53,894 nucleotides of DNA from a virus (Duplodnaviria; Caudoviricetes), in IMG/VR virus record IMGVR_UViG_3300020392_000021, positions 1 through 53,894 of that record, one strand, 5' to 3'. The translations under genes and the position numbers were made by a program. Shown one piece after another: positions 7,072-53,411 of the stretch (position 1 is the first letter of the stretch; each line of letters opens with the position of its first letter). Below the pieces are notes generated by a model. The model saw only the letters and a program-made list of their open reading frames with translations, did no database searches and had not been told where the DNA came from.

Positions 7072-7917
7072 TTAAAATGCAACTAAATTACCGTTTTTCC
7101 ACGCTTCGTAATTGGGACCTAATTCGTAAGTGATTGTTCTACCATCCCTAACTTTTTTAATAATACCCGCATGTACTGCCGCTCTAAAAAATGTTGAGTG
7201 TTGTCCTGATGATCTACCTCTAGAATTTATATATCTTAAAAATCCTTCTTTAGTTTTCTTAGGTTTATCTTGAATGTAATTTATTAGTGACTGTATCATA
7301 CCATCCTTTTTCTCAAAAGTTAGTCCCGCAGTTTTATAGAATAACACTAGTCCGTGTCTTTCTGCAAAATTATTAATTTTATTCATAATTTCCCTTGGAT
7401 CAAAAAAAACACCTCCACCTCTTATTTTTTTATATAAAATTGATGCTAATTGTATTGCTTTTTTAGGTGGGTTATGTTCAAAAAAATAGTCTAATGCTGG
7501 ATCTACAGTATTTAATAACCTTTCTACAGTTTCATTTCCTGCAACTGAATCATCAAATAGATAAAGTATTTGCTTTAGTTCTATTGCCTTCTGTGGGGGT
7601 GAGATATTGGATATATATACGTCATCACTAAGTTTTTCTGCAATCGCATTCATATACCTTCTATAAGGTCTAGGATTAAAACCTAAGTAACCCGAATTTC
7701 GTACTCTATCTAACATTTTATAACCTAATAAGTGATATAACATCTCATCTTCTATAACTTCATCTACAGTAAACCCATATACATTTACTATTAAATCCCA
7801 AACATGTTCAAAATCATCACCTTCAATTTCTTTATAGACTTTATTCATAAAGTTAGTGCGGTTAGTATCTTCCGATACAAACTTACGATATTGTTCCTCT
7901 GTTAATTTAATTTTCAT
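7072..7917 (-). CDS. Leader-bearing hypothetical protein with C-terminal winged-helix-like segment
   Basis: Preferred start MKIKLTEEQYRKFVSE at 7917; C-terminus STFFRAAVHAGIIKKVRDGRTITYELG resembles a wHTH recognition helix plus wing. Confidence 0.7.
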   Translation of the reverse strand: MKIKLTEEQYRKFVSEDTNRTNFMNKVYKEIEGDDFEHVWDLIVNVYGFTVDEVIEDEMLYHLLGYKMLDRVRNSGYLGFNPRPYRRYMNAIAEKLSDDVYISNISPPQKAIELKQILYLFDDSVAGNETVERLLNTVDPALDYFFEHNPPKKAIQLASILYKKIRGGGVFFDPREIMNKINNFAERHGLVLFYKTAGLTFEKKDGMIQSLINYIQDKPKKTKEGFLRYINSRGRSSGQHSTFFRAAVHAGIIKKVRDGRTITYELGPNYEAWKNGNLVAF

Positions 7918-7921
7918 AGTA

Positions 7922-9166
7922 TTATGCACTCATTTCCAAATAATTATATAAACTTTCTTCAAACCACTCTTTCGCCTTTGTAGTATCAGGATAGTAGTAA
8001 TCTAAATCAGGCAAGGATAATTTTTCATATTCCTCATCTAACATCCTTGCAACCGCATCTAAAAAGTATGATTCTTGTTCCTCAACAAAAGCGGTTTCAA
8101 CATCAATATAATGTTCAATTACCCTATCTATTAATTCAGTAGGAATTGGTACTTCTAAATTATACTTATTAGTATTTTCACTCTTTTTATTTTCTACCCA
8201 ATCTGGTTTACCACCAAATAACTCAGTAATTTCTTCTATACCTCGATTTGTTATATCTGATTCTGTCACATCATTCATTGTCCTTTCGTAGGCACTTCTA
8301 ATATCTCTTTCTAAGTCAATCAGTTCACTATAATCTAATAAAAAATTTAAAACATCTTCTCCATCTACTTCATTATTTTTTATCTGTGTCCTTAATGTAT
8401 TTATAAAAGTTGGGTTAATGTCTAAGAAATCATCATCACCTACAACCTCTTCAGGCATACCCATTTCATATAACTCTTCTCCTCCATCCACACCAACCAT
8501 AATTTTGTCTGTATATGCAGGTATGGATTCTATTACACTATCCATTGCCTTTCCTGTCATATCTGAGACTATCTCATCTATTGGGGTATCGTAATAAGAA
8601 AAGAAATCACTATAATCTTCACTAAATGCCTCTTCCGCTAAATCTCTATTCTTAAATAATTCTGAGAACTCATCCCATCCATCAACAGATAATACCATAT
8701 TAGGGTATAATCCTTCGGTGTCGTTAAATGACATAGTATCATAATAATTAAGTTTTTCAGGATTACCATCTTTATCAGTTTTTCCTGTCTTAAAACTTTT
8801 ATTAAAAAAATCTAACTTTTTTAATATACCATATATGGTAGTCATATTTTTCCAACCCCTTACCTCATCTAACTGAAACTCACTAAATATATTACCTCCA
8901 TCTTCCTCATTCCATTTAGAATTAGGGTCTAATGTCCATTTTATGAAAAAATATAAAACAACTTCATAGTCTAATGCGACCATTTCTCCAAAGTAATCTA
9001 ATACCTGTGCAAGATTATCATATCTAAAACCGGTTCTATGTGGACTATTATCTTCATCCCTCCATAAAGAAAAAAACTCCCTATTAAACAGACGAAACAT
9101 CATGTTTTCTATTTTAGGGTTGTCCTCAGTACTTTCGTTAATTATATGTTGGAAGTTTAAATTCAT
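7922..9166 (-). CDS. Acidic hypothetical protein, paralogue of 33914..34792
   Basis: Leader MNLNFQHIINE-S; DLERDIRSAY and FEESLYNYL echo DLESAIGCAY and FNEYLYNRL. Confidence 0.75.
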   Translation of the reverse strand: MNLNFQHIINESTEDNPKIENMMFRLFNREFFSLWRDEDNSPHRTGFRYDNLAQVLDYFGEMVALDYEVVLYFFIKWTLDPNSKWNEEDGGNIFSEFQLDEVRGWKNMTTIYGILKKLDFFNKSFKTGKTDKDGNPEKLNYYDTMSFNDTEGLYPNMVLSVDGWDEFSELFKNRDLAEEAFSEDYSDFFSYYDTPIDEIVSDMTGKAMDSVIESIPAYTDKIMVGVDGGEELYEMGMPEEVVGDDDFLDINPTFINTLRTQIKNNEVDGEDVLNFLLDYSELIDLERDIRSAYERTMNDVTESDITNRGIEEITELFGGKPDWVENKKSENTNKYNLEVPIPTELIDRVIEHYIDVETAFVEEQESYFLDAVARMLDEEYEKLSLPDLDYYYPDTTKAKEWFEESLYNYLEMSA

Positions 9167-9423
9167 AGTTTTTTAATTCTTACTTTTAAATCTCCATCTC
9201 CTTTTATTACTCTATGATATACCTCTTTAGGTATAAATGTTCTTTCAGTTAAAGGTTTAGGTATTTCATTGTCTAATTGAATCATCCAGTTAGTGTCACC
9301 TATAGATTCTACAATTCTATCTTCTTTGTCTCTATGCCACACTAATTCACCACTATCAGTCTCATTAGAGAATGTTCTGATGTGATATCCATTATCTAAC
9401 TTTTCTTTAAATGGTAAACTCAT
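9163..9423 (-). CDS. Small cupin-like protein
   Basis: ELVWHRDKEDR ... FIPKEVYHRVIKG pattern typical of a cupin beta-barrel. Confidence 0.6.
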   Translation of the reverse strand: MSLPFKEKLDNGYHIRTFSNETDSGELVWHRDKEDRIVESIGDTNWMIQLDNEIPKPLTERTFIPKEVYHRVIKGDGDLKVRIKKL

Positions 9424-9806
9424 TACTTTGGGTAAGGATTAAAACTATTACCATACTTATCGTGAGTATTATAATAATCTTCTGTATCATCATATTTACC
9501 AAAATCATGATCTACTGAAGGAAACTCATCAGTACCTACTGCATTAGATTGTTTATTCATAAAGAAATCGAATACACTATCAATATTTGTTTTAGATTCA
9601 CTTATCTTATCGTCTGCCCAGTCGTGTCCATCCGCTAATGTGGAATCCACCCAATGAGGGTTAAAATTTTCTAACATCATATCAATCTGTCTTCTCATTT
9701 GTTTAAGGTTACTAAAGAACATATAGTTTTCAGTTTTCCTATCTTCCTTAATAGTTTTCTTAACTATCCTCAATAAATCTTTTTCTGTTAATTTTATCTT
9801 TTTCAT
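9423..9806 (-). CDS. Leader-bearing hypothetical protein
   Basis: MKKIKLTEKDLLRIVKKTIKE leader, then NYMFFSNL...GHDWADD. Confidence 0.75.
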   Translation of the reverse strand: MKKIKLTEKDLLRIVKKTIKEDRKTENYMFFSNLKQMRRQIDMMLENFNPHWVDSTLADGHDWADDKISESKTNIDSVFDFFMNKQSNAVGTDEFPSVDHDFGKYDDTEDYYNTHDKYGNSFNPYPK

Positions 9807-9818
9807 ATCTTTTTTTTT

Positions 9819-11147
9819 TTACCACCATGTTCCACCACCAGATAAACCTAATTTCTTAGCGTATCTTGGTAACCTACAAGACCAATATCCTGCCTTACAT
9901 TTATCGTTATGTCTACCTTTAGAACAACCGTGTCTAGCGTTGTAAGATTTCTTAGCATCTTTATTACTTAACTTAGCCTTTAATCCACCAGAACCAAATC
10001 TAATTTGTTTTACTCCAGATGGGTTGGATTTGGTTTTATTAACACATCCACTTACATATACTCTATATGCTTTACCACCAGAAGAACTTCTTTGTGGAGA
10101 ATTAGTCTTTACTGTCTTACCTCTAAATTTTGCTTCAGTTAAAATTTCATTGTCTTCCATTGGGATATCTAGCCAAACTTCTTTACCCTCAAATACTGCT
10201 TTCCTACCAATATCTGTTTTAAGTAATTCTTCATCTAAATAAGATAAATTAACTTTATTACTACTATGTAATTTTCTTACTTCATTAATTAAATTAAAAA
10301 AAGATTCACTACCGTATCTATAAATGTTTTCTGATAAAGGTATTTGATTATCTAAATGATATCTTAATCCTTCACTAACAATTGTTCTGTTTTCAGTAAT
10401 CATCATTCTGTTGATGTTTACTGATTCATTCTTTTTAGATTTTCTCTTAGAAGATTTTCTTTTTCTTGGTTTGTAATTTTTTACTTTAATTGGGCTAGGG
10501 GATTGTCCTTTACCCGATTTACCATCATTCTTTTCTTTTTCTCTTTTACGTCTACATGCAGAATCTTTTGCAGACTGTGACATATTAGCCGCAACACTTT
10601 TTGCCCTACATACAGGATAACCTCCTTTATCTGAATCACTTCTTCCACATGTAGGGTGTCCACCACCTTTCTTTTTTCTACATATGTTTACCCATGGTCC
10701 TTGTGGTTGTTTACCCCCTTTTTTCTTTTTTTTTGTACCGAACCATACGGCTAAATCTTCGTCTAACCTTTCTACAACTTCTACCTCACCTATTTCGTAA
10801 GATTCATTTTTTTTCCCTCTACAGTAACTTCCACTACATTTTTTAGTACCATCTAAACCTTTTATTTTACCTTTACATACTTGAACTGCGTATCCATTAG
10901 CATAAGCAGATGGGTAAACATCAAACTTAGCCTTAGCAGCACTCTTACCTCTAGCACATAATGTATTTTTCTTTTTCTTAGATTTACTTCTTGTAGATTT
11001 ACGTTTTCGTGATTTACGTTTTTTTCTTCTTTTCTTTCTACCTTCGTCTATATGTTCTTCTTCTGAAAATAAACCGGTAGATTTACCATCAAAACGCATT
11101 TCATTTAAAACTCTTTTCAGTTGTGATTCTGTTAATTTAATTTTCAT
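9819..11147 (-). CDS. Leader-bearing, highly basic multi-module protein (putative virion internal polyprotein)
   Basis: MKIKLTESQLKRVLNE leader; K/R- and Cys-rich modules (YPSAYANG; WF..WVNIC..CGR..YPVCR; ARHGC..AGYWSC) separated by acidic xxE linkers. Confidence 0.75.
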   Translation of the reverse strand: MKIKLTESQLKRVLNEMRFDGKSTGLFSEEEHIDEGRKKRRKKRKSRKRKSTRSKSKKKKNTLCARGKSAAKAKFDVYPSAYANGYAVQVCKGKIKGLDGTKKCSGSYCRGKKNESYEIGEVEVVERLDEDLAVWFGTKKKKKGGKQPQGPWVNICRKKKGGGHPTCGRSDSDKGGYPVCRAKSVAANMSQSAKDSACRRKREKEKNDGKSGKGQSPSPIKVKNYKPRKRKSSKRKSKKNESVNINRMMITENRTIVSEGLRYHLDNQIPLSENIYRYGSESFFNLINEVRKLHSSNKVNLSYLDEELLKTDIGRKAVFEGKEVWLDIPMEDNEILTEAKFRGKTVKTNSPQRSSSGGKAYRVYVSGCVNKTKSNPSGVKQIRFGSGGLKAKLSNKDAKKSYNARHGCSKGRHNDKCKAGYWSCRLPRYAKKLGLSGGGTWW

Positions 11148-11247: not shown

Positions 11248-12990
11248 TTAATTATCTAAATCAAAGTTTTCGTAATCAGCATTAGGAATGGGATCTATAC
11301 TATTCATCAAACTATCAACTAATTCTTGTTCTTTATATTTATTACTAACATTTGTGTCATTTGTATCTTTATTTAGTCGATTAACAAAAAAGTCATCCTC
11401 TACATTTACATCTTTATTTTTTAATAAATCATCGGATGGATTAAAACTATTAACTTTTTCCTTATTTTTAAATAAGTCTTTATATTTTTTTGTTTGGTAT
11501 TTTTCAGGTACTTCATTAAAATCCATTTGTGTTGGGTTTTTTATACTTTTATTAAACGGTCTCCATCCCTCTTCCCACGCCTTCTTTAAGTTAAGATTAT
11601 CTTCTTTAGATTTTTCAAAACTATAATCAGGATCATCTTCTGAGATAGCACCGAAAGCTTGTTTAGTGGTAAACCAATCATAACCTTCCAACTCAACAGT
11701 GTTTCGAATATCTGGTATCAATATATCCCTAAGTTCCCTAATACCTTTACTAATAAATAATCCCACTTTTTCGTTTCTTAATGATTTATCTAACGCATAA
11801 AATAAAGATAGCTCCATAACCGCTTCTCTACGTGCAACTTTATTCAAATACTTAGACAATGCTTCAGGTATGTTGTTATCACTATTTTTTAATATCGTTT
11901 GGAATACATTGTTGTTTTGCATTAACTGTTTTAAATTAGCTCTTTGGACTACGTTTAAATCTTCACCTATAACCTTAATAGCCTCTGTATAATTATTAAT
12001 TATGTTTTTGTCTAACGTCTTAAGACTATTAAGTATTTTATCTACAGTTTTTAACTCTTTAGTTGTTAATTTATATTTATTATTAAGTTTTTCTATATTA
12101 GACTTTAATATTTTATTATTGCTACTTTTATTTCCTAAATCAATTAAATCACTACAATATTTATATATATCTTTATTTGTCCCAACCTCTTTTACTATAT
12201 TAACACTTTGTTTAATACCTTTACCAGCAATACCACCAAGAAACGAGAATGTTGCACCAATTAATAGTGCTTGTTTTTCTTCTCTAGTTGACGCATTATT
12301 ATATCTAACTACATACCACGCTCCGTGACCAATATCTATTGCTGCACTTAACGCTAAACCTACACCAGGAAGTGCTATAACTGCAACAGAAGCAACATCT
12401 ATAAGACAATCTAAATCATTAAAACAATCTTCTACCCATTCCCCAAAGTCTTCTATTCCTTTTTCAACTGATTCTATACCAGACTCAAGTGCGTATTTTA
12501 GTGGTTTTAAAATTTCCTTTTTCCCAAATTGATAAAAATGGTGAATACCATTTAAAACATCACCAATATGTTCTTCAGGTGATTTTTCTTTAAGACTTTT
12601 TAATAGTCCTTGTTTAAATCCTTCCAAAACTTCATCAAGTTCATCTCCTGTATACATTTTGTAAAGTTTACCAAACGATTCGGGAATTTCAGGAATTTCT
12701 TCTATCGCTTTTTTAGTTTCTCTTGAAATTTTGTTTTTATCTGCTTCTGTATACCCAAAATATGGTATTTTTGCATCTCCAATCTTACCATTCTCCAAAC
12801 CATCAGTATCGTCAGTTTTTGATCCATACCATATATAATCTCCAAAGTCCGTAAGATGTTTACCTACGTTATGATCTAACCAAGCTGAGAACCCAACTAC
12901 TAGATCCATCGGATTTTGTTCTACTAAAATAAGTTTATTTTTTTCAGTTAATAATCTTTTGAGTTGGGATTCTGTTAAAATAACTCTCAT
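11248..12990 (-). CDS. Leader-bearing protein with central hydrophobic hairpin (pre-toxin TG-like)
   Basis: MRVILTESQLKRLLTE leader; LIDVASVAVIALPGVGLALSAAIDIGHGAWY and LLIGATFSFLGGIAG. Confidence 0.7.
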   Translation of the reverse strand: MRVILTESQLKRLLTEKNKLILVEQNPMDLVVGFSAWLDHNVGKHLTDFGDYIWYGSKTDDTDGLENGKIGDAKIPYFGYTEADKNKISRETKKAIEEIPEIPESFGKLYKMYTGDELDEVLEGFKQGLLKSLKEKSPEEHIGDVLNGIHHFYQFGKKEILKPLKYALESGIESVEKGIEDFGEWVEDCFNDLDCLIDVASVAVIALPGVGLALSAAIDIGHGAWYVVRYNNASTREEKQALLIGATFSFLGGIAGKGIKQSVNIVKEVGTNKDIYKYCSDLIDLGNKSSNNKILKSNIEKLNNKYKLTTKELKTVDKILNSLKTLDKNIINNYTEAIKVIGEDLNVVQRANLKQLMQNNNVFQTILKNSDNNIPEALSKYLNKVARREAVMELSLFYALDKSLRNEKVGLFISKGIRELRDILIPDIRNTVELEGYDWFTTKQAFGAISEDDPDYSFEKSKEDNLNLKKAWEEGWRPFNKSIKNPTQMDFNEVPEKYQTKKYKDLFKNKEKVNSFNPSDDLLKNKDVNVEDDFFVNRLNKDTNDTNVSNKYKEQELVDSLMNSIDPIPNADYENFDLDN

Positions 12991-15052: not shown

Positions 15053-15529
15053 TTATTTTCTTAGGTTCTCTCTAACGATATCCTCAATATTAACTTCGTA
15101 TTGTGGATTATTAGGTAATTTAGGTGATATATAGTCAAACATTTGTTGTCCATATATATCATATAACCTTTTAATTACCCTTTCAGGATTTTTTCTAATA
15201 TATCTTAGTACTGATGGTGGTATTTCTTCACCATATTGTCCGAATACCCCCTCAATATCCCTTTCTCTAGGAGACTGTCTATAATTTTTTCTACTATATG
15301 TGTCTTTCATTTCAAACTCTTCAGTCATCTCTTCAGATTCATTTTTAGTATAAGTGGTAATATTACCAGTATCGTCTTTTACCCCAAACTGTTCACCTGA
15401 TTCTACATCTGGTATTGGATCACCTTTTTGGTAAACCGTCATTTGTTCTTCCTCATCTAAAATATTCTCCATTAATTTTCTTCTGACTGCCCTTTTAATT
15501 TCTGATTCGTAAATTCTTACTTTTTTCAT
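15053..15529 (-). CDS. Leader-bearing hypothetical protein
   Basis: MKKVRIYESEIKRAVRRKLMENILDE (start 15529 or 15538). Confidence 0.7.
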   Translation of the reverse strand: MKKVRIYESEIKRAVRRKLMENILDEEEQMTVYQKGDPIPDVESGEQFGVKDDTGNITTYTKNESEEMTEEFEMKDTYSRKNYRQSPRERDIEGVFGQYGEEIPPSVLRYIRKNPERVIKRLYDIYGQQMFDYISPKLPNNPQYEVNIEDIVRENLRK

Positions 15530-41748: not shown

Positions 41749-42591
41749 TTCGGGACTTTTTCTCATCAAATCTTCGTCTCTAGTATAGGTAGAACATCCC
41801 TTTTCAAGACAACGTTGGAGAAAATCTCTCCTTTCCCAATAGGCTTTGTCCCCACCAGCGACTTGATTACCGCCCCAAACATATTTTGGACAACCATCAC
41901 AACCATAATCGTCTTTAATAGGTGGTAATCCTTTGATTCTTTTAATACATTCCATAAATGCTTTCCATCTATCCCCAATAGTTTGGGAAGAGGTATTAAT
42001 TTTTTTAATACACATAAATATATCACCACATTGTTCGTCTCTAATATCTACATCTATTTCACCTAATTTAGGTATATCCTCATCACCAGTAATTGGAACG
42101 CCAGGACCATCAATTGGAACGTCTTTACCAGGATTTTCATCATCTATATCATCACATTTACATTGGAAAGGACAAAAATCATCTTTAGATAAACTGATAG
42201 TAAATTTTAAAACTTCACACATTTTATCTAATGTTTTAGGCCCAACTATACCATCAATGGATAATTTATGTGCTCTTTGAAACTCTTCTACCGCTTTTTT
42301 AGTTTCTCTTCTGAATTTACCGTCACAAACCGGCCATTCTTCAATACAACCTTTTTTAATTCCACCACCTTGTGCACCTTCATTAAAACCATTATTACCT
42401 AATAGATGTTGTATTTTTTTAACTATCTCACCATTAGAACCATATTTGGCGTGTCTAATATTACACTTAATTAAACATGTGTCAGTATCACCATTTTCTA
42501 TTCTACCCGCTCTACTTTCGGTTAATAAACCTAAATTTCTTCTGTTAGCTTCGTTTATTGCTTCTCTTTTTAATTTACTTAATCTTCCCAT
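41737..42591 (-). CDS. Leader-bearing peptidoglycan-binding (PG_binding_1), Cys-rich protein
   Basis: Start MGRLSKLKREAINEANRRNLGLLTE-S; GSNGEIVKKIQHLL..DGKFRRETKKAVEEFQRAHKLSIDGIVGPKT. Confidence 0.85.
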   Translation of the reverse strand: MGRLSKLKREAINEANRRNLGLLTESRAGRIENGDTDTCLIKCNIRHAKYGSNGEIVKKIQHLLGNNGFNEGAQGGGIKKGCIEEWPVCDGKFRRETKKAVEEFQRAHKLSIDGIVGPKTLDKMCEVLKFTISLSKDDFCPFQCKCDDIDDENPGKDVPIDGPGVPITGDEDIPKLGEIDVDIRDEQCGDIFMCIKKINTSSQTIGDRWKAFMECIKRIKGLPPIKDDYGCDGCPKYVWGGNQVAGGDKAYWERRDFLQRCLEKGCSTYTRDEDLMRKSPELFN

Positions 42592-42694: not shown

Positions 42695-43291
42695 ATGAAA
42701 AAGTTAATCACACTATTATTAGTATTACTAACACTAAACAGTTATAGTCAGTCTAAAGAAGAAATAGAAAATTATTTAGACACTATCATACATTATGTAG
42801 AAGGAAATGATAATAAATATATACCAACCAAATACTCAGAAGATGTTAAGATATATGTAGATGGTGATAAGAAACCTTATTTGTTAACAGAATTAGATAA
42901 AATTATAAACGAATTAAATGATTTAATTACCACAATAAATTTTAGTTTAGTAGAAAGTAAATCTAAATGTAATATGTATATATATTTTGGTGATGTTAAA
43001 GGGTATTCTAAAATAAGTGAAGATGTTTTAAGTAAAAAAAATGTTAACGGTTTTGGTGAAATTTATCCTGATCTAGATTATAATATAATTTATACATCAA
43101 TATTTATCAATATCGGTAAAGTTAAGGACATTAAAAGACAAAAACATGTTCTTAGAGAGGAAGTTACACAATCATTAGGGTTAACTAATGATACTTATCA
43201 ATATTTTGATAGTATGTTTTATCAAGGGTACTCTAATGTTACCGAATATTCTAATTTAGATAAAGAAATAATTAAATTATTTTATAACTAA
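42695..43291 (+). CDS. Secreted DUF2927-like protein, paralogue of 24265..24888
   Basis: MKKLITLLLVLLTLNSYSQ; HVLREEVTQSLGLTNDT..SMFY. Confidence 0.72.
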   Translation: MKKLITLLLVLLTLNSYSQSKEEIENYLDTIIHYVEGNDNKYIPTKYSEDVKIYVDGDKKPYLLTELDKIINELNDLITTINFSLVESKSKCNMYIYFGDVKGYSKISEDVLSKKNVNGFGEIYPDLDYNIIYTSIFINIGKVKDIKRQKHVLREEVTQSLGLTNDTYQYFDSMFYQGYSNVTEYSNLDKEIIKLFYN

Positions 43292-44736
43292 TTTTTATTT
43301 CTTTTATTTTTTCTTTTATTTTTCCTACCCCTTTCATTCTTTGTTTTATTCTTTTTATTCCATTTAAATAATTTTTTCGTCATTCCATCATCTGTGGAAT
43401 GTTTCTTAAGAATATCACAAGCTGCAAAAGTATGTAGTTTAACTACCTTATCATACTTATTAGGTGTACTTACCTCGACCTCTTTTCTTTTATTTAATGA
43501 TGGGATATCTAATTTTATTCTACCAACACCCTCATGACAATCAAAACCACCCTTCTTTTTCCACGGACCTAAATCTATACCATTTTTTCTAAATGTCTTT
43601 TTACACGCTGCAGTAATAACTAATTTACCATCATGTTTACCTATAATATCTTCGTTGAAGAATTCTTTATTATCTCCATCTATAGTTAATTTAAATACGT
43701 TCCTTCTACCCATACCTGGTTTACTACTATTTATAATTAATGCGTTATCCATAATTTTTTTATTATTTAAACTAGCATAATCATAAAGTACACCATCTCT
43801 ACCTGTTCTTTTTAGTTTATAACCATTAGCATAAATTTCATATATTGCGTGATTACAACTGTGTCCTGAACCATCATAAATAACTTCTATAGTAGAATTA
43901 TCAAAGCAAGTCTCAAACAATTCTGGAAGTTCTGGTTCTTCAGGATCTTTAGGGTCTTTAGGATCTTCAGGATCTTTAGGATCTTCAGGATTTTCTTTTT
44001 TAGCAACGCATTTACAATCAGGTTCTTTTAACCATATTGGTTTTTCTGGAGGACAACCACCCTCTGGTTCTTTACATTCATCAGTAATTTCTGTTTTAGG
44101 TACATAACAAATTTTTATTAGAATCTGAACTATCTGACCAGTATTTTTATATTTATCTTTTTTTCTATTCTTGTCCGTTGTACCTCCTGTATCTACAACT
44201 ACACCTTCAGTTTTAGATATTGCATTTTCTAGTACACCATCTTTAAATTTTATCTTCAAAGTATCCAACCCACCAGGACTATTTAATTTTTTAGCGACAT
44301 TATTTGCTCTATCAACTGCTAACTGTTTATTTTTTTTATAGTTACCACTATTTTTTTTATGTTTATATGTTCCTTTAGGTGGGTTTGATTTTCTGTCATT
44401 TGCAACATCTGGTTCTACAGAACCCCCATAATAGTTACTAGCACCACCTTTAACTGAAAATTCTGTTACGAATAAACCTATACCTTTATCAGATAGTTTT
44501 TTTAGTGTGGGATTCCCTTTAATTTTTTGATTTACTGCGTCTAAGAACCCTTTAAATGCGCCTGATCCAGTAGTAACACTAACGGGAAAATTACCAACAT
44601 GACTAACAACTTCACATACAGGTTTGTTCGGTATTTCTTTTTGTTCTAAAATTGGATTTTTGTAATTACCGTTTTGGTAAACCATCAAACCCTTCATTCG
44701 TTTTATTTCCTCGTTTAAAGTATTTCTTTTATTCAT
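43288..44736 (-). CDS. Leader-bearing protein with OmpA-C-like motif and P(E/K)D linker
   Basis: MNKRNTLNEEIKRMKGLM..ILEQ; VKGGASN..NKQLAVDRANNVAKKL; PEDPKDPEDPKDPKDPEEP. Confidence 0.72.
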   Translation of the reverse strand: MNKRNTLNEEIKRMKGLMVYQNGNYKNPILEQKEIPNKPVCEVVSHVGNFPVSVTTGSGAFKGFLDAVNQKIKGNPTLKKLSDKGIGLFVTEFSVKGGASNYYGGSVEPDVANDRKSNPPKGTYKHKKNSGNYKKNKQLAVDRANNVAKKLNSPGGLDTLKIKFKDGVLENAISKTEGVVVDTGGTTDKNRKKDKYKNTGQIVQILIKICYVPKTEITDECKEPEGGCPPEKPIWLKEPDCKCVAKKENPEDPKDPEDPKDPKDPEEPELPELFETCFDNSTIEVIYDGSGHSCNHAIYEIYANGYKLKRTGRDGVLYDYASLNNKKIMDNALIINSSKPGMGRRNVFKLTIDGDNKEFFNEDIIGKHDGKLVITAACKKTFRKNGIDLGPWKKKGGFDCHEGVGRIKLDIPSLNKRKEVEVSTPNKYDKVVKLHTFAACDILKKHSTDDGMTKKLFKWNKKNKTKNERGRKNKRKNKRNKN

Positions 44737-44811: not shown

Positions 44812-46077
44812 ATGAGTAAAATTTTATTATTGTTATTATTATTATTACCTGTAATGATTTTAACACAAACACCGTGTGCTACAGATGAATATAATAAACC
44901 CTTTATTGAAGAAAATCCACAAAGGTACGATAAAATAGAAAAAGATATACAAAACTATTTAAGAAGTCCGCAAAAGAAATCAGAAAATAGTTATATAATT
45001 CCAGTTGTAGTTCATATAGTCTATAACGATTGGAGAGAAAATCTTCATGACTCTATAATCTATCAACAATTAAAGGTTTTAAATGATAGATTTAACCTTA
45101 GAAACGCTGATACAGTATTATTAACTGATACCCTACAGAATTGGAAAGGTAATTTTAAAATATCATTTGAGTTGGCACATATTGATCCTGAAGGATATCC
45201 AACTACAGGAATTACAAGAACTAAAACAAATGTTGGTGAATTTTCTTATTATAGTAATAATGTTAAAAAATCAAGTCAAGGAAAAGTGGGTTGGCCAAAC
45301 GACAGATATCTTAATATTTGGATATGCGACCTCTATGATGGATTGATGGGTTATGCACAATTTCCTGGCGGTGAAGACTGGTCGGATGGAGTTGTTGTAG
45401 ATTGGCAAAGTGTTGGGGATAGAGTCTATTCTTGGACTTATCCAATGTTCAATAAATGGGCAAAAGGACATGTCCTTGTTCATGAAATAGGACATTGGTT
45501 AAACCTTCATCATCCTTGGGGAGATTGGGGTCCATGTGGAGAAGACTATATTCCAGAGACAGGTTTACAAGATGGACCTATTTACCCAAGTGCTGAATGT
45601 CCAGATACCCTATTTAGTCAATGTGATACACCAGAAAGGGTGTTTGTAAAACATTATATGGACTATGTAGGTGCAGATTGTATGTGTACTTTTACAAAAA
45701 ATCAAGTTGTTAGAGGTATTGCATCTTTGGAAACCTATAGAATAGATCTATTAAATAATTATGTACCAAAGCCACAGTTAACTGGTTTTGAGAATACGGT
45801 AGTTAGACCATCATTTACTAAAGGTAGAGTTATTTTACAATTTCCAGACTATGAAGGAGAACTACAAATCATAATTTATGATATGTTAGGGAGAATAGTT
45901 TATAGAGAATATACTACATTTCCATTTATTGATATGAGATTAAAATTAACTAACGGTAGTTACTTAATAGATGTACTTAAAAAAAGTGAAAGAGTATTTC
46001 AAAGAAAGATTATAATTAATAGTGCGTCACCATACGGTGCTAGTTTAAAACCAATAATAAATAAAGATAAAATTTAA
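44812..46077 (+). CDS. Secreted M43 (pappalysin/ulilysin-like) zinc metalloprotease with T9SS C-terminal-like sorting domain
   Basis: Signal peptide; pro-peptide Cys (PCATD); IPVVVHIVY, YLNIW, LMGYAQFP, HEIGHWLNLHH, HYMDY Met-turn; IYDMLGRIV..LTNGSYLI..KIII. Confidence 0.85.
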   Translation: MSKILLLLLLLLPVMILTQTPCATDEYNKPFIEENPQRYDKIEKDIQNYLRSPQKKSENSYIIPVVVHIVYNDWRENLHDSIIYQQLKVLNDRFNLRNADTVLLTDTLQNWKGNFKISFELAHIDPEGYPTTGITRTKTNVGEFSYYSNNVKKSSQGKVGWPNDRYLNIWICDLYDGLMGYAQFPGGEDWSDGVVVDWQSVGDRVYSWTYPMFNKWAKGHVLVHEIGHWLNLHHPWGDWGPCGEDYIPETGLQDGPIYPSAECPDTLFSQCDTPERVFVKHYMDYVGADCMCTFTKNQVVRGIASLETYRIDLLNNYVPKPQLTGFENTVVRPSFTKGRVILQFPDYEGELQIIIYDMLGRIVYREYTTFPFIDMRLKLTNGSYLIDVLKKSERVFQRKIIINSASPYGASLKPIINKDKI

Positions 46078-46443: not shown

Positions 46444-47451
46444 TTAATATCCTCTTGTGAATGAGTCCCAGTACTCTTCAGTCTTCTCCCATATCTCACC
46501 CTGTAATGAACCCCAAATACGATTCCATTCACTACCACTGATTCCATACATATCTTCTATGTGATTCATTAAGTCAACATGCCAGTTAGTATTTGGTGAA
46601 CTAATATCATTAGTAAATGCATCGTCTGCAGAAACCGCAGATAAAAAATCATCGTCCCTAATACTAGCGGAATAATCTATCATAGGGAAATAAACAAGTC
46701 CTCTATCAAAGTCCCACACTATTTCTTTAAGAACTCTGTCAGTAACCTTTTCAACGTATGCTAAATCAATACCTTCATCTAATCTAGGTCTGGTTTTATA
46801 AGATAAATCGAAAAACCTCTTAAAGTATTTTTCAAAGATATCATTAAAATACCAATACATTACCTCTTCTATTTCATCAATTTCTGTAATACCAAACATG
46901 TCTAAATATCTGGTGAAAATCTTACCCATAGTAAACTCATCATCAAAATTATCAACCATCTTTTTACAATAGTGTGCACTCAATACAAATACATTTCCTG
47001 TTTGTCTATCGGCAATAAATGGTGTTATAACACTAGCACCAGTTTCATTAAAGGGTTTAGTCTCATCTATCATCGTATCTACAACTTTTTGTAGGAATTC
47101 TGTTTGTTTATCTATTTTAGATTCTCTTAGGTAATCAACATGTACTCTTAGATATGGTGATACATGTTCTTTTTTGGATAGTACCATATTAATAATATGT
47201 TCATCATACTTATCCCAAAATAATTCTTCTATTTCATTATAGGTTAATCCCCAATAATCTTTTAGATAATTTTCTAAACATTCTGGTATATAGTTAAAAT
47301 AAGGTGCTTCACTTCCCCAACGAATACCAACTTGTAAACTTTTACACTTACCATCATATAAGTCTATTTCTTTATAAGATGCATCTCTGAATTTAGTATT
47401 CTTAACTAAATCATTATAAACATATTCTAAATATTCTTTTTGTTTATCCAT
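46444..47451 (-). CDS. Three-module polyprotein-like protein
   Basis: KQKEYLEYVYNDLVKNT..YWGLTYNEIEE; LRE-SKIDKQTEFLQKVVDTMIDET..FGITEIDEIEE; LDE-GIDLAYVEKVTDRVLKEI..MYGISGSE. Confidence 0.78.
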   Translation of the reverse strand: MDKQKEYLEYVYNDLVKNTKFRDASYKEIDLYDGKCKSLQVGIRWGSEAPYFNYIPECLENYLKDYWGLTYNEIEELFWDKYDEHIINMVLSKKEHVSPYLRVHVDYLRESKIDKQTEFLQKVVDTMIDETKPFNETGASVITPFIADRQTGNVFVLSAHYCKKMVDNFDDEFTMGKIFTRYLDMFGITEIDEIEEVMYWYFNDIFEKYFKRFFDLSYKTRPRLDEGIDLAYVEKVTDRVLKEIVWDFDRGLVYFPMIDYSASIRDDDFLSAVSADDAFTNDISSPNTNWHVDLMNHIEDMYGISGSEWNRIWGSLQGEIWEKTEEYWDSFTRGY

Positions 47452-47797
47452 TATCGTTAGGTGTTATCTTAATGGACTTACCATCTATTTCTACTTTAAA
47501 GTCATTTGGAGAAAGGTTTTCGAAATAATCTTTTAAATATTTAATCTTACCGTCTTTTCCCTTCATTGTGGTGGGAACATCCACTTGTCTTACATAAGGT
47601 GGTTTAGGTGGTTTCTTTTCCACCCATTTAACAGTATTTTTATCCGTAGCGTATGCATCGAAATCATCTTTCGTTGTAAACTCCCAATACTTATCACCTT
47701 TACGTTTTCTATAATAGGTGTCACCACCTATGTCTCTTACTTGATATTCGTACTGAGAAACTTCTTCTAATAATATTTTTCTTATTATGTCCCTCAT
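47444..47797 (-). CDS. Leader-bearing hypothetical protein
   Basis: MRDIIRKILLEE. Confidence 0.72.
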   Translation of the reverse strand: MRDIIRKILLEEVSQYEYQVRDIGGDTYYRKRKGDKYWEFTTKDDFDAYATDKNTVKWVEKKPPKPPYVRQVDVPTTMKGKDGKIKYLKDYFENLSPNDFKVEIDGKSIKITPNDNG

Positions 47798-47810: not shown

Positions 47811-48692
47811 TTACAACATAATAGATACGATTGCACCACCTTTAGCAAAACTAATTTTCGCAACTTTACCTTTTCCACTATTATTTGCAGCGTTGTTAAT
47901 TGCATTTACAATATCTTCTCTTTCTTCAGTATCACTACCCATACCTGTTAACCCATCAGTAATAGTATTATTTATAAATCCTTCTAATCCACCGTTGTTT
48001 CTTAATTCATAATCTAAGTCTACAATATCTGAATATGTTTCTAATTCTTTTATTGCGTTTACAATTGATTCTTCATCTTCATGACCCAAATAATCTGCAC
48101 CCCTCATTTTATCACCCACACTACCAATAGATTTTTTATCTAATCCCATAGTTGTAAGTGGACTAATTACGACAAAACCATATCTATCCATATCTCTAGG
48201 TAGTGATCTATTCCTATCATAAATTGGGTTTAAATCACTAGGTTTGTAAGATGAATTACTATTAGTGGTAATTAAGTCTTCTATTACATCTTTAGCCACA
48301 TATTTACCTGTAATATCACCCACAATATCAAATGACATAAAAACTATATCTTTCATTTCTTCCATTCTAGATCTACCTAATTCTGCATTTCTATCTCTAC
48401 TACCAGTAGAGGATGTACCACTACCAATGGTAATGAATTTAGGGATGTTTTTTTCCGCTCTAAATCTTTCTATAGTTGGTAATGATCTCATAATGTCTCT
48501 AGATAAGTGTTGTGCTGCCATTTTTTTATCACTATCAGATATTGTGTCCTTACCCTCTTCAAAAAACATTTGATATCCAACATCTCCTTCACTTTTATCT
48601 ATAACTGGTTCTATACCTAATTTATCTTCACCTAATAATCTTTTATTAGATTCTAATATTAATTCTCTTTTTAATTTTGCTAATCTTCCCAT
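47811..48692 (-). CDS. Leader-bearing protein with OmpA-C-like domain
   Basis: MGRLAKLKRELILESNKRLLGE; FFEEGKDTIS..ITIGSGTSSTGSRDRNAELGRSRMEEMKDIV..DRYGFV. Confidence 0.72.
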   Translation of the reverse strand: MGRLAKLKRELILESNKRLLGEDKLGIEPVIDKSEGDVGYQMFFEEGKDTISDSDKKMAAQHLSRDIMRSLPTIERFRAEKNIPKFITIGSGTSSTGSRDRNAELGRSRMEEMKDIVFMSFDIVGDITGKYVAKDVIEDLITTNSNSSYKPSDLNPIYDRNRSLPRDMDRYGFVVISPLTTMGLDKKSIGSVGDKMRGADYLGHEDEESIVNAIKELETYSDIVDLDYELRNNGGLEGFINNTITDGLTGMGSDTEEREDIVNAINNAANNSGKGKVAKISFAKGGAIVSIML

Positions 48693-48715: not shown

Positions 48716-51004
48716 TTATATTTTTTCAATATCTAAATATTTTGCCCCTCTACCTTTATTCTTTAAAGTTATTTCTTTTTCATGAGGATAAAGGATATTA
48801 TTATTTAATGTCTCCATTACATCTACTTCACTTTTAGGTACTTTAACAGTTATTAAATATGCATCTTCTCCTTGTCTGTGTCCGTATATACTACCTCTAT
48901 TATAATGGTTATTAATTAAGTCTGTTCTGTCTTGTGAATAATGACTACCTAATTCATCGTAATTTATTTGATTTCCATCATCTAAGTAAAGTACTCTATA
49001 TAGAAATAATTCTTCTGGTAAATCTTTTACCCACGTAATTAATTCTCCTAATTCTTCTGATGCAATTTCTGGTGGAGTACCCATATCCCCAAAAGATTGT
49101 AATAGTGATTTATGTTCATCACCAGTTAAATTTTGTTCCGTTATAATTGCATCATCAGGAATATCGGGCAAACCTGGATTCACAAGTTTTAATTTTTTTC
49201 TTCTTAATTTATCTTTATACATTTCCCATAAAAATGCACTTTCTCTGGCTTGTGCAATACTATTACCTGTAGGAAACATTATTTGGTTATCACCCACCCC
49301 ATATATATCATCTACGTATTTCTCAAAACTACTGTGCCTATAGTCATTTATAAATACATCGTATTCAAATTTTCCGAAAGGAGTAAATACAATAAAACCA
49401 CCATCCTGAAAAACTTCATCGGATTCTAGTTTAGTTTCTTTATCTAACCTATCTACTACATTTTTTAAATACCTAATTTCTTTACTATCAATTCTTCTAT
49501 AGAATGGTACGTTGATGTCCGTACTTAATATATCAATACCTTTAGCCTTTAATAAATTTATGTTTTGTTCTCTAGCCCTTTCATCCCAATCCTCATAATG
49601 TTGTTCTCTTAATGAACCATAATGTTTTTTATGTTTTTCATTATACACCAAAATATTTTTAGCATTTAAACTGTCCCATACAAGATCTGATACCATTTCT
49701 GTCTCTGCCTTTGTTAACCCATATGTATCTTTTGAGTGTTTTTCTAAACCAACCCAAAAACCTCTACCACCTGTAGACATATCACTCCACGAACCGAATC
49801 CCCTAACTTTAAAATTGTCGTTGGAAATTTCTATTTCTTTCATAATAGAGTCTGCAACTTTATATAGATATTTAAGATCCATTCCTTTAGGTTTTTCTGT
49901 AGATTCATTAAGTCCTTTTTGGTAATAGTAATTGGTTTTAATTTCATAGAAGTAATTATTCCATACATAATCAATTTCTTCATCGGTTAACCCATAAACA
50001 TCTCTACAATGCTTTATTGTGTGGGTTAAAAATCTATTGTACAAATAATCTAAATGATCAAACATTTTTATCGCATTCCATTTTTCATCTGGATTACCTG
50101 GTATACTTATCATATCTCCACTGTAAGAAGTATATATAATAGTCTCCTTAACAAGTTGTTCAATAACCCTATCTAAGAATCTTCCTTGTTTATCTATAGA
50201 TTCATTTAAACTACCACCAATTTCAAATACCTCATCACCTCTAAACCATTCTTCTGATTTACTGGTAGGTATTTTATCATCTTCATTCATTTCTAAATAA
50301 CTTTTATAAATATTATTATAAAGTGTAGTATAATAGTTAAAAATGACTTCTTGTATTTCTTCAGAATTTAGTCCATATATATTAGTTAGATGATCTTCTT
50401 CGTAGTCTTCTATGTATTCTTCTTTTCTTTTTTTTCTTTTAAGTGCACTGTTTTTTACCGAGTCCATAGAAAAAACTTCAATAGGTTCTCCTGTTCGTGT
50501 ATTAGTAAGTGCAAAAATTATTTCTACTCGTGTTACTTTTTTAATATCTGTAGCGAAATCTTTATTTTCCCATATTCTATACATTGATTCTTTAAGTAAT
50601 CTATCTACAACCTTGTCTAAAAAATCTTTTTGTGTGTCATTTGATTCGGTTAAGATATTTTCTTCTTCACCTTGTGTTTTAACAATTTGTTTAAGAATAA
50701 AATAATAAACATGATGTAATTCATTTAACTCATTTTCTGGTACTTCATACTTCTCTATATAGTTAACACTTTTACTTGGTGATTCTAACTCATAATCTCC
50801 ATCATAATTAAAATGAAGTACAGAACTCCTTGATGGATATTTGTGATTATGTACTAACTTAGATCGGTGCAATAAGTCTTTAAGGATTTCTCTATAATAT
50901 TTATAGTTAAGGTATTTACTCCAGTATTCTCCCAGCACATTATCCCTAACATCATCTAAGATGTCATCGAACCATGCATCATACATATGTTTACTATTAT
51001 CCAT
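48716..51004 (-). CDS. Six-segment polyprotein-like protein with C-terminal ADP-ribosyltransferase-like domain
   Basis: Segments split by LTE-S, LNE-S, LNE-S, LRE-Q, ITE-Q; repeated FLD(K/R)V..L.KE(T/S) and YGL(T/N)xEE; last segment LYRVL / GSHYS / HEKEITL. Confidence 0.75.
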   Translation of the reverse strand: MDNSKHMYDAWFDDILDDVRDNVLGEYWSKYLNYKYYREILKDLLHRSKLVHNHKYPSRSSVLHFNYDGDYELESPSKSVNYIEKYEVPENELNELHHVYYFILKQIVKTQGEEENILTESNDTQKDFLDKVVDRLLKESMYRIWENKDFATDIKKVTRVEIIFALTNTRTGEPIEVFSMDSVKNSALKRKKRKEEYIEDYEEDHLTNIYGLNSEEIQEVIFNYYTTLYNNIYKSYLEMNEDDKIPTSKSEEWFRGDEVFEIGGSLNESIDKQGRFLDRVIEQLVKETIIYTSYSGDMISIPGNPDEKWNAIKMFDHLDYLYNRFLTHTIKHCRDVYGLTDEEIDYVWNNYFYEIKTNYYYQKGLNESTEKPKGMDLKYLYKVADSIMKEIEISNDNFKVRGFGSWSDMSTGGRGFWVGLEKHSKDTYGLTKAETEMVSDLVWDSLNAKNILVYNEKHKKHYGSLREQHYEDWDERAREQNINLLKAKGIDILSTDINVPFYRRIDSKEIRYLKNVVDRLDKETKLESDEVFQDGGFIVFTPFGKFEYDVFINDYRHSSFEKYVDDIYGVGDNQIMFPTGNSIAQARESAFLWEMYKDKLRRKKLKLVNPGLPDIPDDAIITEQNLTGDEHKSLLQSFGDMGTPPEIASEELGELITWVKDLPEELFLYRVLYLDDGNQINYDELGSHYSQDRTDLINNHYNRGSIYGHRQGEDAYLITVKVPKSEVDVMETLNNNILYPHEKEITLKNKGRGAKYLDIEKI

Positions 51005-51525: not shown

Positions 51526-52113
51526 TTATGGGTTATTTACAGGAGGATCTATTGTACTATGATAAATAACTCCAGTATTTGGATTACCTCCACCAATCGG
51601 CACGACTCCTCCACCAGAATTAGGTGGTGTTGTCGAATTAGGTATTTTAAGACTACTAATCTTTCTAATTAACATTTTTAGAATTGGGTGATTTTTTATT
51701 ACTACTATTGATAAACTAGCAACTAATACACCTAATATCCCTTTAAGTATTTTTTTAGAAGCTGCATTTCTAGTTTCAGATGTGGTATTTTCTAATTTCT
51801 CAATCTGTCGTTCTAATTTCTTAATATTTTTATTTTCCCTTTTTAAAATTTTTCCACTGACTCTATTAGATTTCAATTGTTCTAAGTATGCTTCTAGTTT
51901 TATTTTACTTAAGTTCTTTTCAATCTTTAAACGTTCTGCTTCTTCTACTGCTGCTCTAAGTTCTTCTTCTAACTTTTTACCTTGTTCCTTAGATAATTTT
52001 AACTGATTATCTAAAGGAGAAGATTCAATATTATCCAAAGTTTCTTGTTCGGTTAATATAGATAACCCCATTAATCTCCTCATTTTATTTGTTTCGTCTA
52101 ATCTAGTCTTCAT
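51526..52113 (-). CDS. Leader-bearing coiled-coil protein with one hydrophobic helix
   Basis: MKTRLDETNKMRRLMGLSILTEQ; ILKGILGVLVASLSIVVI. Confidence 0.72.
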   Translation of the reverse strand: MKTRLDETNKMRRLMGLSILTEQETLDNIESSPLDNQLKLSKEQGKKLEEELRAAVEEAERLKIEKNLSKIKLEAYLEQLKSNRVSGKILKRENKNIKKLERQIEKLENTTSETRNAASKKILKGILGVLVASLSIVVIKNHPILKMLIRKISSLKIPNSTTPPNSGGGVVPIGGGNPNTGVIYHSTIDPPVNNP

Positions 52114-52244: not shown

Positions 52245-52275
52245 TAAAAAAAGGTATTAAATCAATAATACCTTT
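52245..52275 (-). terminator. Intrinsic terminator
   Basis: AAAGGTATTA-AATCAA-TAATACCTTT with A-run. Confidence 0.65.
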
Positions 52276-52308
52276 AATATCTCCTTTCTAGATAATTAGT
52301 TTGTGTTG

Positions 52309-52527
52309 TTATTTCAATGCATCTGGTAATGTACCCAATGCAGGAATTGCTCTTCTTCTTACACCACCATAACCACCTGCAGCACCACCTCTAACTACAA
52401 CATCATATATTCTACTTAACATTTCTCTATCCTCTTCAGTAAATGATACTGGACGACTCTCCCCTTCTGCCCAAGATTGTTCAGAAATAATTTCTTTATA
52501 TTGTTTTTCAGTTATTCTAATTTTCAT
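52309..52527 (-). CDS. Leader-bearing small protein
   Basis: MKIRITEKQYKEIISEQ. Confidence 0.72.
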   Translation of the reverse strand: MKIRITEKQYKEIISEQSWAEGESRPVSFTEEDREMLSRIYDVVVRGGAAGGYGGVRRRAIPALGTLPDALK

Positions 52528-52550
52528 AATATAATGTTTTTTTTAAATTA

Positions 52551-52874
52551 TTAATACTTTAAAACATGATCTACTAAATTTTGTAAATCATCGGATAAAT
52601 AATCAATCTGATAGTGAAAATCTTCAATTATAAATCTCGCTATCTTATCTATCACCATATCTACCTTATCTGAAGGTATCATCTCTAGAATCGCTTCTCT
52701 TTCCATTAAGCTATCCCTTACTTCTTTTTCAATCATTTCAATAGTAATGGGACGGTGAAAATGGTTAACCATTTCTTCATCACCCATACGTTGTTCAGAT
52801 AGTGTTCTCTTTACAATTCTTTTAAGGTCTGATTCTGTTAATCTAATTACCTTACCGTTTTTTTTAATTTTCAT
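52551..52874 (-). CDS. Leader-bearing small protein
   Basis: MKIKKNGKVIRLTESDLKRIVKRTLSEQ. Confidence 0.75.
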   Translation of the reverse strand: MKIKKNGKVIRLTESDLKRIVKRTLSEQRMGDEEMVNHFHRPITIEMIEKEVRDSLMEREAILEMIPSDKVDMVIDKIARFIIEDFHYQIDYLSDDLQNLVDHVLKY

Positions 52875-52895
52875 AATCTTTTTTTATTTTTATTT

Positions 52896-53411
52896 TTATT
52901 TACCAAATAAACTAACAAATTTAGGATCTAATTCATTTATATTTTTAGGTAAATCTAATGAACCCCTAAATATTGGTTCGATATGTTTATTACATTCCGC
53001 CACTTCCAATTTATCTGGTGCACATTTATAAGGACATCTCGCAGTGCTCATTCCATATGATTCTACTGAATCTAAAAATATATCTTTACGTTTTTTAGTA
53101 AAAGTTAAGATAACACCAGGTTCAAATGTTTCAGTTTCACCATCCTTATTTACCCATATACATTTTTTTAATGCATCTGAAAATAAAGATTCATAGTTTT
53201 TTATATTATCTGATATACCTACATATATTACTACAGTATCATTTTCGGATTTCACATAAGGCATATCATAAACCTCACCCTCATGTATTGTTATATCACC
53301 TATGGTTATACCATTCTGATCTATTGTGTTTTCATTTAACACTCTTTTTACAATTCTTTTAAGGTCTGATTCTGTTAACCTAATTACCTTACCATTTTTC
53401 TTAATTTTCAT
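52896..53411 (-). CDS. Leader-bearing hypothetical protein
   Basis: Start MKIKKNGKVIRLTESDLKRIVKRVLNE at 53411. Confidence 0.75.
   Translation of the reverse strand: MKIKKNGKVIRLTESDLKRIVKRVLNENTIDQNGITIGDITIHEGEVYDMPYVKSENDTVVIYVGISDNIKNYESLFSDALKKCIWVNKDGETETFEPGVILTFTKKRKDIFLDSVESYGMSTARCPYKCAPDKLEVAECNKHIEPIFRGSLDLPKNINELDPKFVSLFGK

Follow-up and report, generated by a model that had tools for sequence, protein, structure and literature searches.

The virus contig IMGVR_UViG_3300020392_000021 (Caudoviricetes), which we analyzed at its entire length of 53,894 bases (hereafter the window), carries 27 genes on its minus strand, spanning 47 kb, whose protein products open with one of four classes of N-terminal leader. 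We find that these leaders are strictly N-terminal, modular, and interchangeable tags that end in a hydrophobic residue, any residue, and Glu (h-x-E). The reading that we favor, with a confidence slightly better than even, is that they make up an expanded form of the capsid-targeting propeptide system of phage T4, portable from protein to protein and tied to T4-type head assembly. We hold the reading at that level because every functional step in it (docking, cleavage, packaging, and ejection) is one that we infer.

The 27 leader open reading frames (ORFs) comprise 14 of class A, five of class B, six of class C, and two of class D. We translated from 27 starts given by a first-pass annotation of the window, and all of them gave ORFs of 39–634 residues with the N-termini that it had described. 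The start codon is ATG in 26 of these; the remaining ORF starts with GTG at 40169, where the adjoining codon at 40166 is an ATG and the likelier start. Class A has a short form, MK-h-K-LTE-x-(D/Q)-h-KR (h, hydrophobic; x, any residue), and a long form, MKIKKNGKVIRLTESDLKRIVKR-h-h-x-E, while class B reads MK-x-h-IRKILKEE, class C E-x-x-RM-x-x-L-h-G, and class D MGRL-x-KLKRE ... LG. The classes listed in the first-pass annotation are thus real, but the class C gene with its start at 17682 had been missed, and the gene starting at 30129 is a weak member of class A. Two extra ORFs, starting at 9166 and 32396, have short-leader candidates that are less certain than the 27. The leader itself is a short, charged amphipathic helix of 11–31 residues up to the Glu, and it leads into a flexible junction with the hydrophobic-x-Glu.

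The leaders are confined to the beginnings of genes. In six-frame searches with regular expressions, classes B, C, and D occurred only 1–13 residues from the first start codon, and the LTE core of class A lay 4–22 residues from the start codon in 8 of 10 matches, the other two being a repeat at the C-terminus of the protein encoded at 39540-40166. With hidden Markov models (HMMs) for the four classes, we also searched every stop-to-stop segment (3,826 in six frames) from the window and from its close relatives G001 and G002, two IMG/VR records from a single sample. At E<0.01, the models gave 62 matches, every one of them on the main coding strand; a Met lay no more than 12 residues upstream in 61, and 60 started no later than residue 30 of the segment.

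Counted conservatively with the profiles, leaders stand at the start of 23 of the 71 ORFs called in the window, of 21 among the 217 of G001, and of 19 among the 119 of G002, and from these proportions we conclude that the region in the window is the main leader cluster. DNA identity among the three is mostly 69–98% over aligned stretches. G002 (127 kb) matches the left two thirds of the window in reverse orientation and then continues into genes for the scaffold, a 580-residue T4-like major capsid protein, DNA polymerase, and tail proteins, and G001 (159.5 kb) extends from about the 44.8-kb position of the window into replication and metabolic genes. Because CheckV puts the completeness of the two relative records at 38% and 48%, we estimate a genome of about 330 kb for the lineage. 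Counted over the window and the two relatives, such a genome would hold roughly 45–50 leaders.

Behind the leaders, the bodies differ. When residues 36 to the end of the 25 proteins that are long enough were compared by BLASTP (E<0.01), only one similar pair emerged (24892-26175 with 26186-28090), which bears out the earlier claim that unrelated bodies share a few N-terminal leader classes and that the leaders are modular. The bodies range from 3 to 70 kDa and include a very basic one of 48 kDa, two tiny basic tails, and several very acidic ones. The very basic body belongs to the class A protein encoded at 9819-11147, which combines a long Lys/Arg run with a net charge of +63 and an isoelectric point of 10.1 and is a candidate DNA-coating internal protein. 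Among the long-form class A genes, three with near-identical leader peptides are also close in DNA and a fourth (40468) is more diverged. Since the copies vary at synonymous positions and keep the peptide, the conservation of the leader acts at the protein level.

The class A leader is widespread in public data. We searched a 31-position class A profile against 1.84 billion representative proteins (clusters at 50% identity) and obtained matches to 4,223 protein clusters at E<=0.001, 226 of them at E<=1e-10. In the best 150 of the 4,223, the best match begins at residue 1 in 146. The 137 bodies of at least 25 residues among these 150 fall into 94 BLAST groups, and a single protein of the 150 has a Pfam match, which lies on a body domain and not on the leader. 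Seven of the same 150 (P0047, P0055, P0062, P0097, P0098, P0149, and P0172) contain a second, internal full leader between two bodies. These look like fused genes or cleavable polyproteins, and internal second leaders would be expected of the latter.

The leaders could also be followed with patterns in IMG/VR. The back-translated class A core pattern gave 30 matches at 29 loci, all of them 6 or 11 residues after the first Met and with varied bodies. At least 130 matches at no fewer than 125 loci were found for class B, with the motif exactly four residues after a Met in 88 of the matches listed. Class D gave 15 matches at 14 loci, 12 of which are MGRL-type leaders with varied bodies, and the strict class C pattern, which is too narrow, gave 2 loci. 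A full-text search found five of the leader strings printed in no paper, and the titles and abstracts of the capsid-targeting literature (work on T4, SPN3US, and P1) describe no multi-class tag system like this one. Among 50,697 phage records, neither megablast with window positions 1-25000 nor tblastn with a 33-residue leader gave a match, and we found no cultured relative with these leaders.

The first-pass annotation had reported that nearly all leaders end in (L/I)-x-E and had proposed comparing them with non-leader genes. The motif is present within the first 35 residues of all 27 window leader proteins, as against 139 of 307 non-leader N-termini (45%) and 778 of 2,582 internal 27-residue windows in this AT-rich proteome. 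In the database, the spacing is nearly fixed: of 146 leaders that could be parsed among the best 150 class A matches, 143 have the h-x-Glu exactly 16 residues after the start of the core. The hydrophobic position (P3) in the 146 is Leu in 115, Ile in 24, Met in 5, and Val in 2, and the residue after the Glu (P1′) is Gln in 73, Gly in 21, and Glu in 17.

The strongest illustration of portability comes from the Hydrolase_2 protein encoded at 30414-31241, for which we found 46 database homologues. Their N-termini are class A leaders in 33, class B leaders (MKDLIRRILKE) in 3, a short leader (MSVLSFINWINE) in 1, and an MIKLK-x-IL-x-EQ leader in 4, and the remaining 5 are fragments or have no comparable leader. 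In 31 of 31 aligned homologues, a hydrophobic-x-Glu stands at one junction, which precedes the start of the conserved body by between a few and about 15 residues. The converse exchange is seen between close strains. The protein encoded at 52896-53411 has its first 29 residues in common with its G001 counterpart and that encoded at 26186-28090 its first 30 with its G002 counterpart, and in both pairs the bodies differ; at 51526-52113, a class C protein shares its body with the G001 gene at the same site, which has a class D leader. At about 85–98% DNA identity, strains retain a leader and trade the body that directly follows it. The conservation of the tag-coding 5′ ends makes it probable that they serve, in addition, as points of recombination for this exchange.

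An AlphaFold2 model of the hydrolase, built from the 31-sequence alignment, has the body at a predicted local distance difference test (pLDDT) score of 87–98 and the leader as a separate helix at model residues 6–17 with scores of about 50–57. The score falls below 50 at residues 14–19, the site of the h-x-Glu. A detachable tag whose junction is exposed would be expected to look like this.

The lineage has the machinery with which a T4-type propeptide would be processed. The gp21-like protease announced in the first-pass annotation at 871-1560 is a genuine S77 enzyme, 29% identical to T4 gp21 and scoring 86.4 bits against PF03420, where the cut-off is 27. Its catalytic residues are in place: the His of GEADHP and the Ser of GVSSRG align with T4 gp21 residues that read Ala in PDB 5jbl, the crystallized inactive T4 enzyme. 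The alignment between the major capsid protein of G002 and T4 gp23 extends over the propeptide. LLTE occupies residues 57-60 of the G002 protein, and its GSFE is aligned to the GSFLTE of T4, after which mature gp23 begins (the mature chain has 456 of 521 residues); sequence alone does not decide whether LLTE or GSFE is the site used.

Gene order points the same way. The leader genes of the window follow one another in an unbroken run on the minus strand as far as the terminase gene, and the portal and protease genes lie beyond it. In the relative G008 (318 kb, 96% complete), the protease gene overlaps at its stop codon with a class A gene; next come a short-leader gene (MNFIDRVILE), a class-B-like gene on the opposite strand, and then the genes for the scaffold and the capsid protein. 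The head module of G008 (L188) holds this genome's 769-residue class B protein, the class A gene, and a glutamine-synthetase-like gene, at 5697-8006 (−), 8866-9255 (+), and 4085-5221 (+). S77 is encoded in all five large class-B-bearing genomes (233–318 kb, 78–100% complete), each of which has 3–14 class A matches. The leader classes were not seen in the head region of the Microcystis phage Mel-JY01, whose portal is 42% identical.

The first-pass annotation had named equal frequency of the motif on replication or metabolic proteins as the result that would speak against a packaging role. That result does not arise in the lineage: 37 of the 39 Pfam-annotated G001 proteins have no leader, every replication and metabolic protein among them. 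Leaderless proteins of G001 include primase, DnaB, ribonucleotide reductase, UvsX/RecA-like, gp32-like, and exonuclease proteins as well as ClpP, DnaJ, sigma-70, an IMP dehydrogenase-type protein, and methyltransferases, and those of G002 include the terminase, portal, capsid protein, DNA polymerase, helicase, sheath, and tube. The two tagged G001 proteins are both cell-wall proteins that bind peptidoglycan, one of the PG_binding_1 type (class D) and the other combining NlpC/P60 with PG_binding_1 (class-A-like by pattern only).

If the leaders are propeptides of the T4 type, the leader helix would dock a newly made protein onto the assembling prohead core, made up of the acidic scaffold and its partners. 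After closure of the shell, the S77 protease would cut behind the leader Glu, which would free the mature cargo inside the capsid and leave the leader to be degraded or lost. The cargo would then stay with the DNA, and at least part of it would leave with the DNA at infection. Among the proteins carried in this way would be small basic ones, cell-wall hydrolases that have no export signal, and many proteins of unassigned function.

Several observations weigh against this propeptide reading. The LTE-x-(D/Q/E)-h core may be read as a helix N-cap box with a hydrophobic staple, a feature that would need no protease, and the leaders, at 11–31 residues, are longer and far more conserved than cleavage alone demands. 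P1′ is mostly Gln, and h-x-E, although enriched in the leaders, is common by chance. Two copies of ILNTLTESEYRTLK, with a class-A-like LTESEY core, end the class C protein encoded at 39540-40166 and are kept in its G002 orthologue. Some leader genes of G002 stand among tail genes, both between sheath and tube and behind the tube; because the sheath, tube, and a hub-like gene are adjacent in Mel-JY01 (the hub-like gene being 30% identical to the G002 gene after the inserted block), the tail-region leader genes seem to have been inserted into late operons. The tagged proteins extend beyond structural ones, since the 769-residue class B protein of G008 has a PolyA_pol/CCA-adding-type (tRNA nucleotidyltransferase-type) domain, and class B leaders on the IMG/VR loci L071, L089, L062, L046, and others precede CCA-adding enzyme-, DHH phosphoesterase-, and nucleotidyltransferase-like N-termini (likenesses judged by eye over about 100 residues each). 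S77 was found in none of five other class-A-bearing contigs, which is uninformative because these are only 13–40% fragments. Lastly, 42 head proteins of SPN3US are reported to enter the head uncleaved (PMC10052503), so that a leader would not be required for head location in giant phages.

Much of this would also suit a leader that is never cut and serves as a permanent docking or oligomerization helix, with its Glu in a binding surface, to recruit proteins to a phage structure such as the head interior, the tail lumen, the baseplate, or another. Such a helix would account for the very high conservation (11 invariant columns in 19 leader sequences), for the leader genes among the tail genes of G002, for the class-A-like core at a C-terminus, and, through helix capping, for the LTE core itself, and it sits well with the report that most SPN3US head proteins are uncleaved (PMC10052503). 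It leaves unexplained that sequence-unrelated leader classes all end in h-x-E at one junction of one orthologous body, that this junction is modeled as flexible, that the lineage has a T4-type protease together with a T4-like capsid propeptide, and that fused proteins contain internal leader copies, and for these reasons we judge a permanent helix rather unlikely. The exchange of bodies raises the question of whether the conserved unit is DNA, that is, a 5′ module of promoter-like motif and leader codons that acts mainly as a cassette boundary for recombination and a common translation start, with a peptide of little function. Three of the long-form leaders are indeed close in DNA (the one at 40468 being more diverged), strains swap the body exactly behind the leader, and an upstream motif is common to these genes. 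Yet the copies differ synonymously and keep the peptide, the peptide is conserved over 4,223 clusters at 50% identity, and leader classes replace one another with the h-x-E end kept. From these three observations, we conclude that selection acts on the leader protein; the synonymous differences rule out a DNA-only repeat, and a mainly DNA-level role is improbable.

The window also encodes a ClpC-like AAA+ protein with a VGF loop and an Hsp20, and G001 adds ClpP, DnaJ, and FKBP, so the leaders could in principle be recognition tags by which a phage chaperone and protease set (ClpC-like ATPase, ClpP, Hsp20, and DnaJ) folds its clients or degrades them at a set time. We think this quite improbable, as the leaders cluster with head genes and end in the head-protease motif, and to our knowledge no known Clp recognition signal resembles them. 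Export or membrane targeting would explain why three peptidoglycan-directed kinds of protein (Hydrolase_2, PG_binding_1, and NlpC/P60) are tagged, but it is scarcely credible given that the leaders are highly charged and have no hydrophobic core, that most cargo is acidic or basic and soluble-looking, and that plus-strand DUF2927 and M43 genes of the same genome have ordinary signal or lipoprotein peptides. A hydrophobic core after a short basic N-region, as in Sec, lipoprotein, or Tat signals, is absent from the leaders and was recognized by eye at the plus-strand starts 24265, 42695, and 44812; on composition, the leader is ruled out as an export signal.

Taking the leaders as T4-type propeptides, the closest known counterpart is the T4 capsid-targeting sequence (CTS) of IPI-III and Alt, which gp21 removes. 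According to one review, T4 combines L/I-x-E cleavage with a portable 10-residue CTS, CTS-like sequences occur on divergent internal proteins, and the CTS has been proposed as an evolutionary route for loading varied proteins (PMC9026906). The likeness lies in an N-terminal portable tag that ends in L/I-x-E; in the S77 protease, the T4-type portal, and the T4-like capsid propeptide (the capsid protein being that of the relative G002); and in tagged proteins that are divergent, in some cases small and basic, and encoded near head genes. T4, however, has a handful of tagged proteins with a tag of about 10 residues, whereas here there are 27 genes in 47 kb with tags of 11–31 residues and at least four interchangeable classes, of which class A alone is found on 4,223 database clusters, the system here being known from sequence. 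What is new is thus the scale, the several equivalent tag classes, the swapping of bodies behind the tag, and the global spread.

The giant phages phiKZ, 201phi2-1, and SPN3US are alike in having many internal head proteins and a gp21-related protease that cuts after Glu, and their propeptides have been proposed to target proteins to the prohead (PMC10052503, PMC9026906). Cleavage there follows S/A-x-E, with a small residue (S/A/G) at P3, a position that Leu or Ile fills in 139 of the 146 leaders parsed here. For SPN3US, the available part of the source gives nine known protease substrates, two with propeptides of 20 and 24 residues and the others of 111–254 residues, and reports no common portable tag (PMC10052503). 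The lineage described here, in contrast, is T4-like by its portal and capsid protein. Encapsulin cargo-loading peptides are likewise short, portable peptides that bring unrelated cargo into an HK97-fold shell, but they usually lie at the C-terminus, attach to the shell itself, and stay on the protein, whereas the tag here is N-terminal and followed by a protease motif. The hyperplastic regions and promoter-flanked mobile ORFs of T4-like phages hold small accessory genes that related phages exchange and whose 5′ flanks are conserved. Bodies are similarly swapped behind the conserved leader here, although the conserved unit includes a protein-coding leader selected at the peptide level.

A broader proposal is that the leaders are a general, multi-class code for loading into the capsid, used by widespread marine and aquatic T4-like phages of about 300 kb, and that every tagged protein is packaged and injected. 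We regard this as possible but doubtful.

The features of the window are as follows, on the minus strand unless marked (+). The left-end head module consists of an acidic scaffold-like protein (1-756), identified by translation as the N-terminal 252 residues of a gene that runs off the window and has a full-length 500-residue G002 orthologue between protease and capsid protein; the 229-residue S77 (T4 gp21-type) prohead protease (871-1560; PF03420, E 2.4e-24; phrog_207, head maturation protease); the T4-type portal protein (3226-5184; PF07230, E 6e-76); the large terminase (5237-7030; PF03237; phrog_2); and, between portal and protease, three small proteins of no assigned family. Directly upstream of the terminase gene lies a class A leader protein of 281 residues (7072-7917), followed by the uncertain short-leader candidate MNLNFQHIINE with 414 residues (7922-9166), a similar short leader (P0037) replacing class A on a hydrolase orthologue. 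Class A leader proteins follow with 127 residues (9423-9806), 442 residues and the very basic body (9819-11147), 580 residues (11248-12990), whose body is paralogous to a 1030-residue class A protein after the tail tube gene in G002, and 158 residues with a degenerate leader (15053-15529). Three class C proteins have 583 residues (15931-17682, very acidic), 427 residues (24892-26175), and 634 residues (26186-28090, sharing only the first 30 residues with its syntenic G002 gene). Next come a class A leader with a 25-residue basic tail (28101-28235, 44 residues) and the weak class A protein of 541 residues (28504-30129), which the HMMs missed at E<0.01.

The first-pass annotation had proposed that dozens of effectors are packaged and injected and had listed hydrolase, leucine-rich repeat (LRR), peptidase, peptidoglycan-binding, and OmpA-like proteins as cargo. 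Pfam supports the class A Hydrolase_2 cell-wall hydrolase of 275 residues (30414-31241; PF07486) and the class D PG_binding_1 protein of 284 residues (41737-42591). The LRR match, on the weak class A protein, is itself weak (E 0.0019, below the curated cut-off), and the other two do not stand: the M43 peptidase at 44812-46077 is rejected as tagged cargo, since its gene lies on the plus strand and the protein starts with an ordinary signal peptide, not a leader, and the Pfam search at E<=0.01 found no OmpA-like domain.

To the right of the hydrolase gene, the uncertain short-leader candidate MKFIDILNE heads a 134-residue DUF192 protein (32396-32800, +), and the similar MNFIDRVILE leader of G008 belongs to the second gene after the protease. 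A class B protein of 289 residues with DUF4314 (32788-33657) and a class A leader with a short basic tail (33742-33861, 39 residues) are followed by class B proteins of 292 (33914-34792), 159 (34792-35271), and 175 residues (35268-35795). The 208-residue class C protein that ends in two class-A-like LTESEY cores (39540-40166) adjoins long-form class A proteins of 100 (40166-40468) and 176 residues (40503-41033). Further along are proteins of class C with 482 residues (43288-44736), class B with 117 (47444-47797), class D with 293 (47811-48692), and class C with 195 (51526-52113; the syntenic G001 homologue has a class D leader and a related body). The run ends with a class A protein of 72 residues (52309-52527) and two of the long form, with 107 (52551-52874) and 171 residues (52896-53411), of which the latter shares only its first 29 residues with the syntenic G001 gene; for the 107-residue protein, the ESM Atlas gave low-scoring unnamed clusters only.

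The window has a G+C content of 29%, and its minus strand carries most genes. Its DNA recurs in marine metagenomes of several studies; the runs with at least half of the sampled words came from studies P1 and P2, and 35% of the sampled words of window positions 1-10000 were present in one metatranscriptomic run. Two features suggest a host among the Bacteroidota: the M43 peptidase, a secreted protein, has a Por_Secre_tail match (E 0.0011, below the curated cut-off), and TAnnTTTG motifs precede plus-strand genes.

A promoter-like motif, ATATTTAT(A/T)(T/A)A, precedes 23 of the 64 genes of at least 60 residues, where 1.9 would be expected if sites were uniform. It lies 11–45 nucleotides upstream of starts such as 1560, 3185, 5184, 7030, 11147, 12990, 30129, 41033, 48692, 52113, and 53411. 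Head genes have it in common with the genes that open leader-gene runs, and it occurs in front of the ClpC-like gene, too. TAnnTTTG, which we take to resemble the −7 element of Bacteroidota sigma-A, is found upstream instead at 20755-21678 (−), 24265-24888 (+), 35860-36456 (+), and 42695-43291 (+), genes that encode a DNA methyltransferase, an unannotated 198-residue protein, and two DUF2927 proteins with signal peptides, and this suggests a separate, host-type promoter class. The ClpC-like AAA+ protein (21739-24207, +) has Clp_N, UVR, and two AAA modules with the VGF loop at residues 684-686. With the Hsp20 gene (20216-20674, −) and the ClpP, DnaJ, and FKBP encoded in G001 (G001 84386-85096, 87237-88259), it makes up a phage-borne protein-quality-control set. 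SET-domain proteins (PF00856) are encoded at 41132-41446 (+) of the window and at 49199-49831 of G001.

Should the leaders prove to be uncut or their proteins unpackaged, they would still be a very widespread, previously undescribed N-terminal module whose partner is worth finding. If the tags do load cargo, the head-carried, injected proteins of uncultured giant phages could be listed from sequence only, a task that today needs virion proteomics of a cultured phage, and thousands of uncharacterized proteins would be marked as candidate early effectors or anti-defense factors. It would also mean that the T4 trick of three to four proteins can grow to tens per genome with several equivalent tags, and it would supply new portable tags for packaging foreign proteins in phage capsids. 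Were the general code true as well, the thousands of tagged and mostly uncharacterized proteins in metagenomes would form a vast store of first-strike effectors that are delivered together with the DNA, which could include cell-wall openers, DNA-coating basic proteins, and anti-defense enzymes such as the tagged tRNA nucleotidyltransferase, and strains would re-arm themselves by swapping bodies behind a constant tag.

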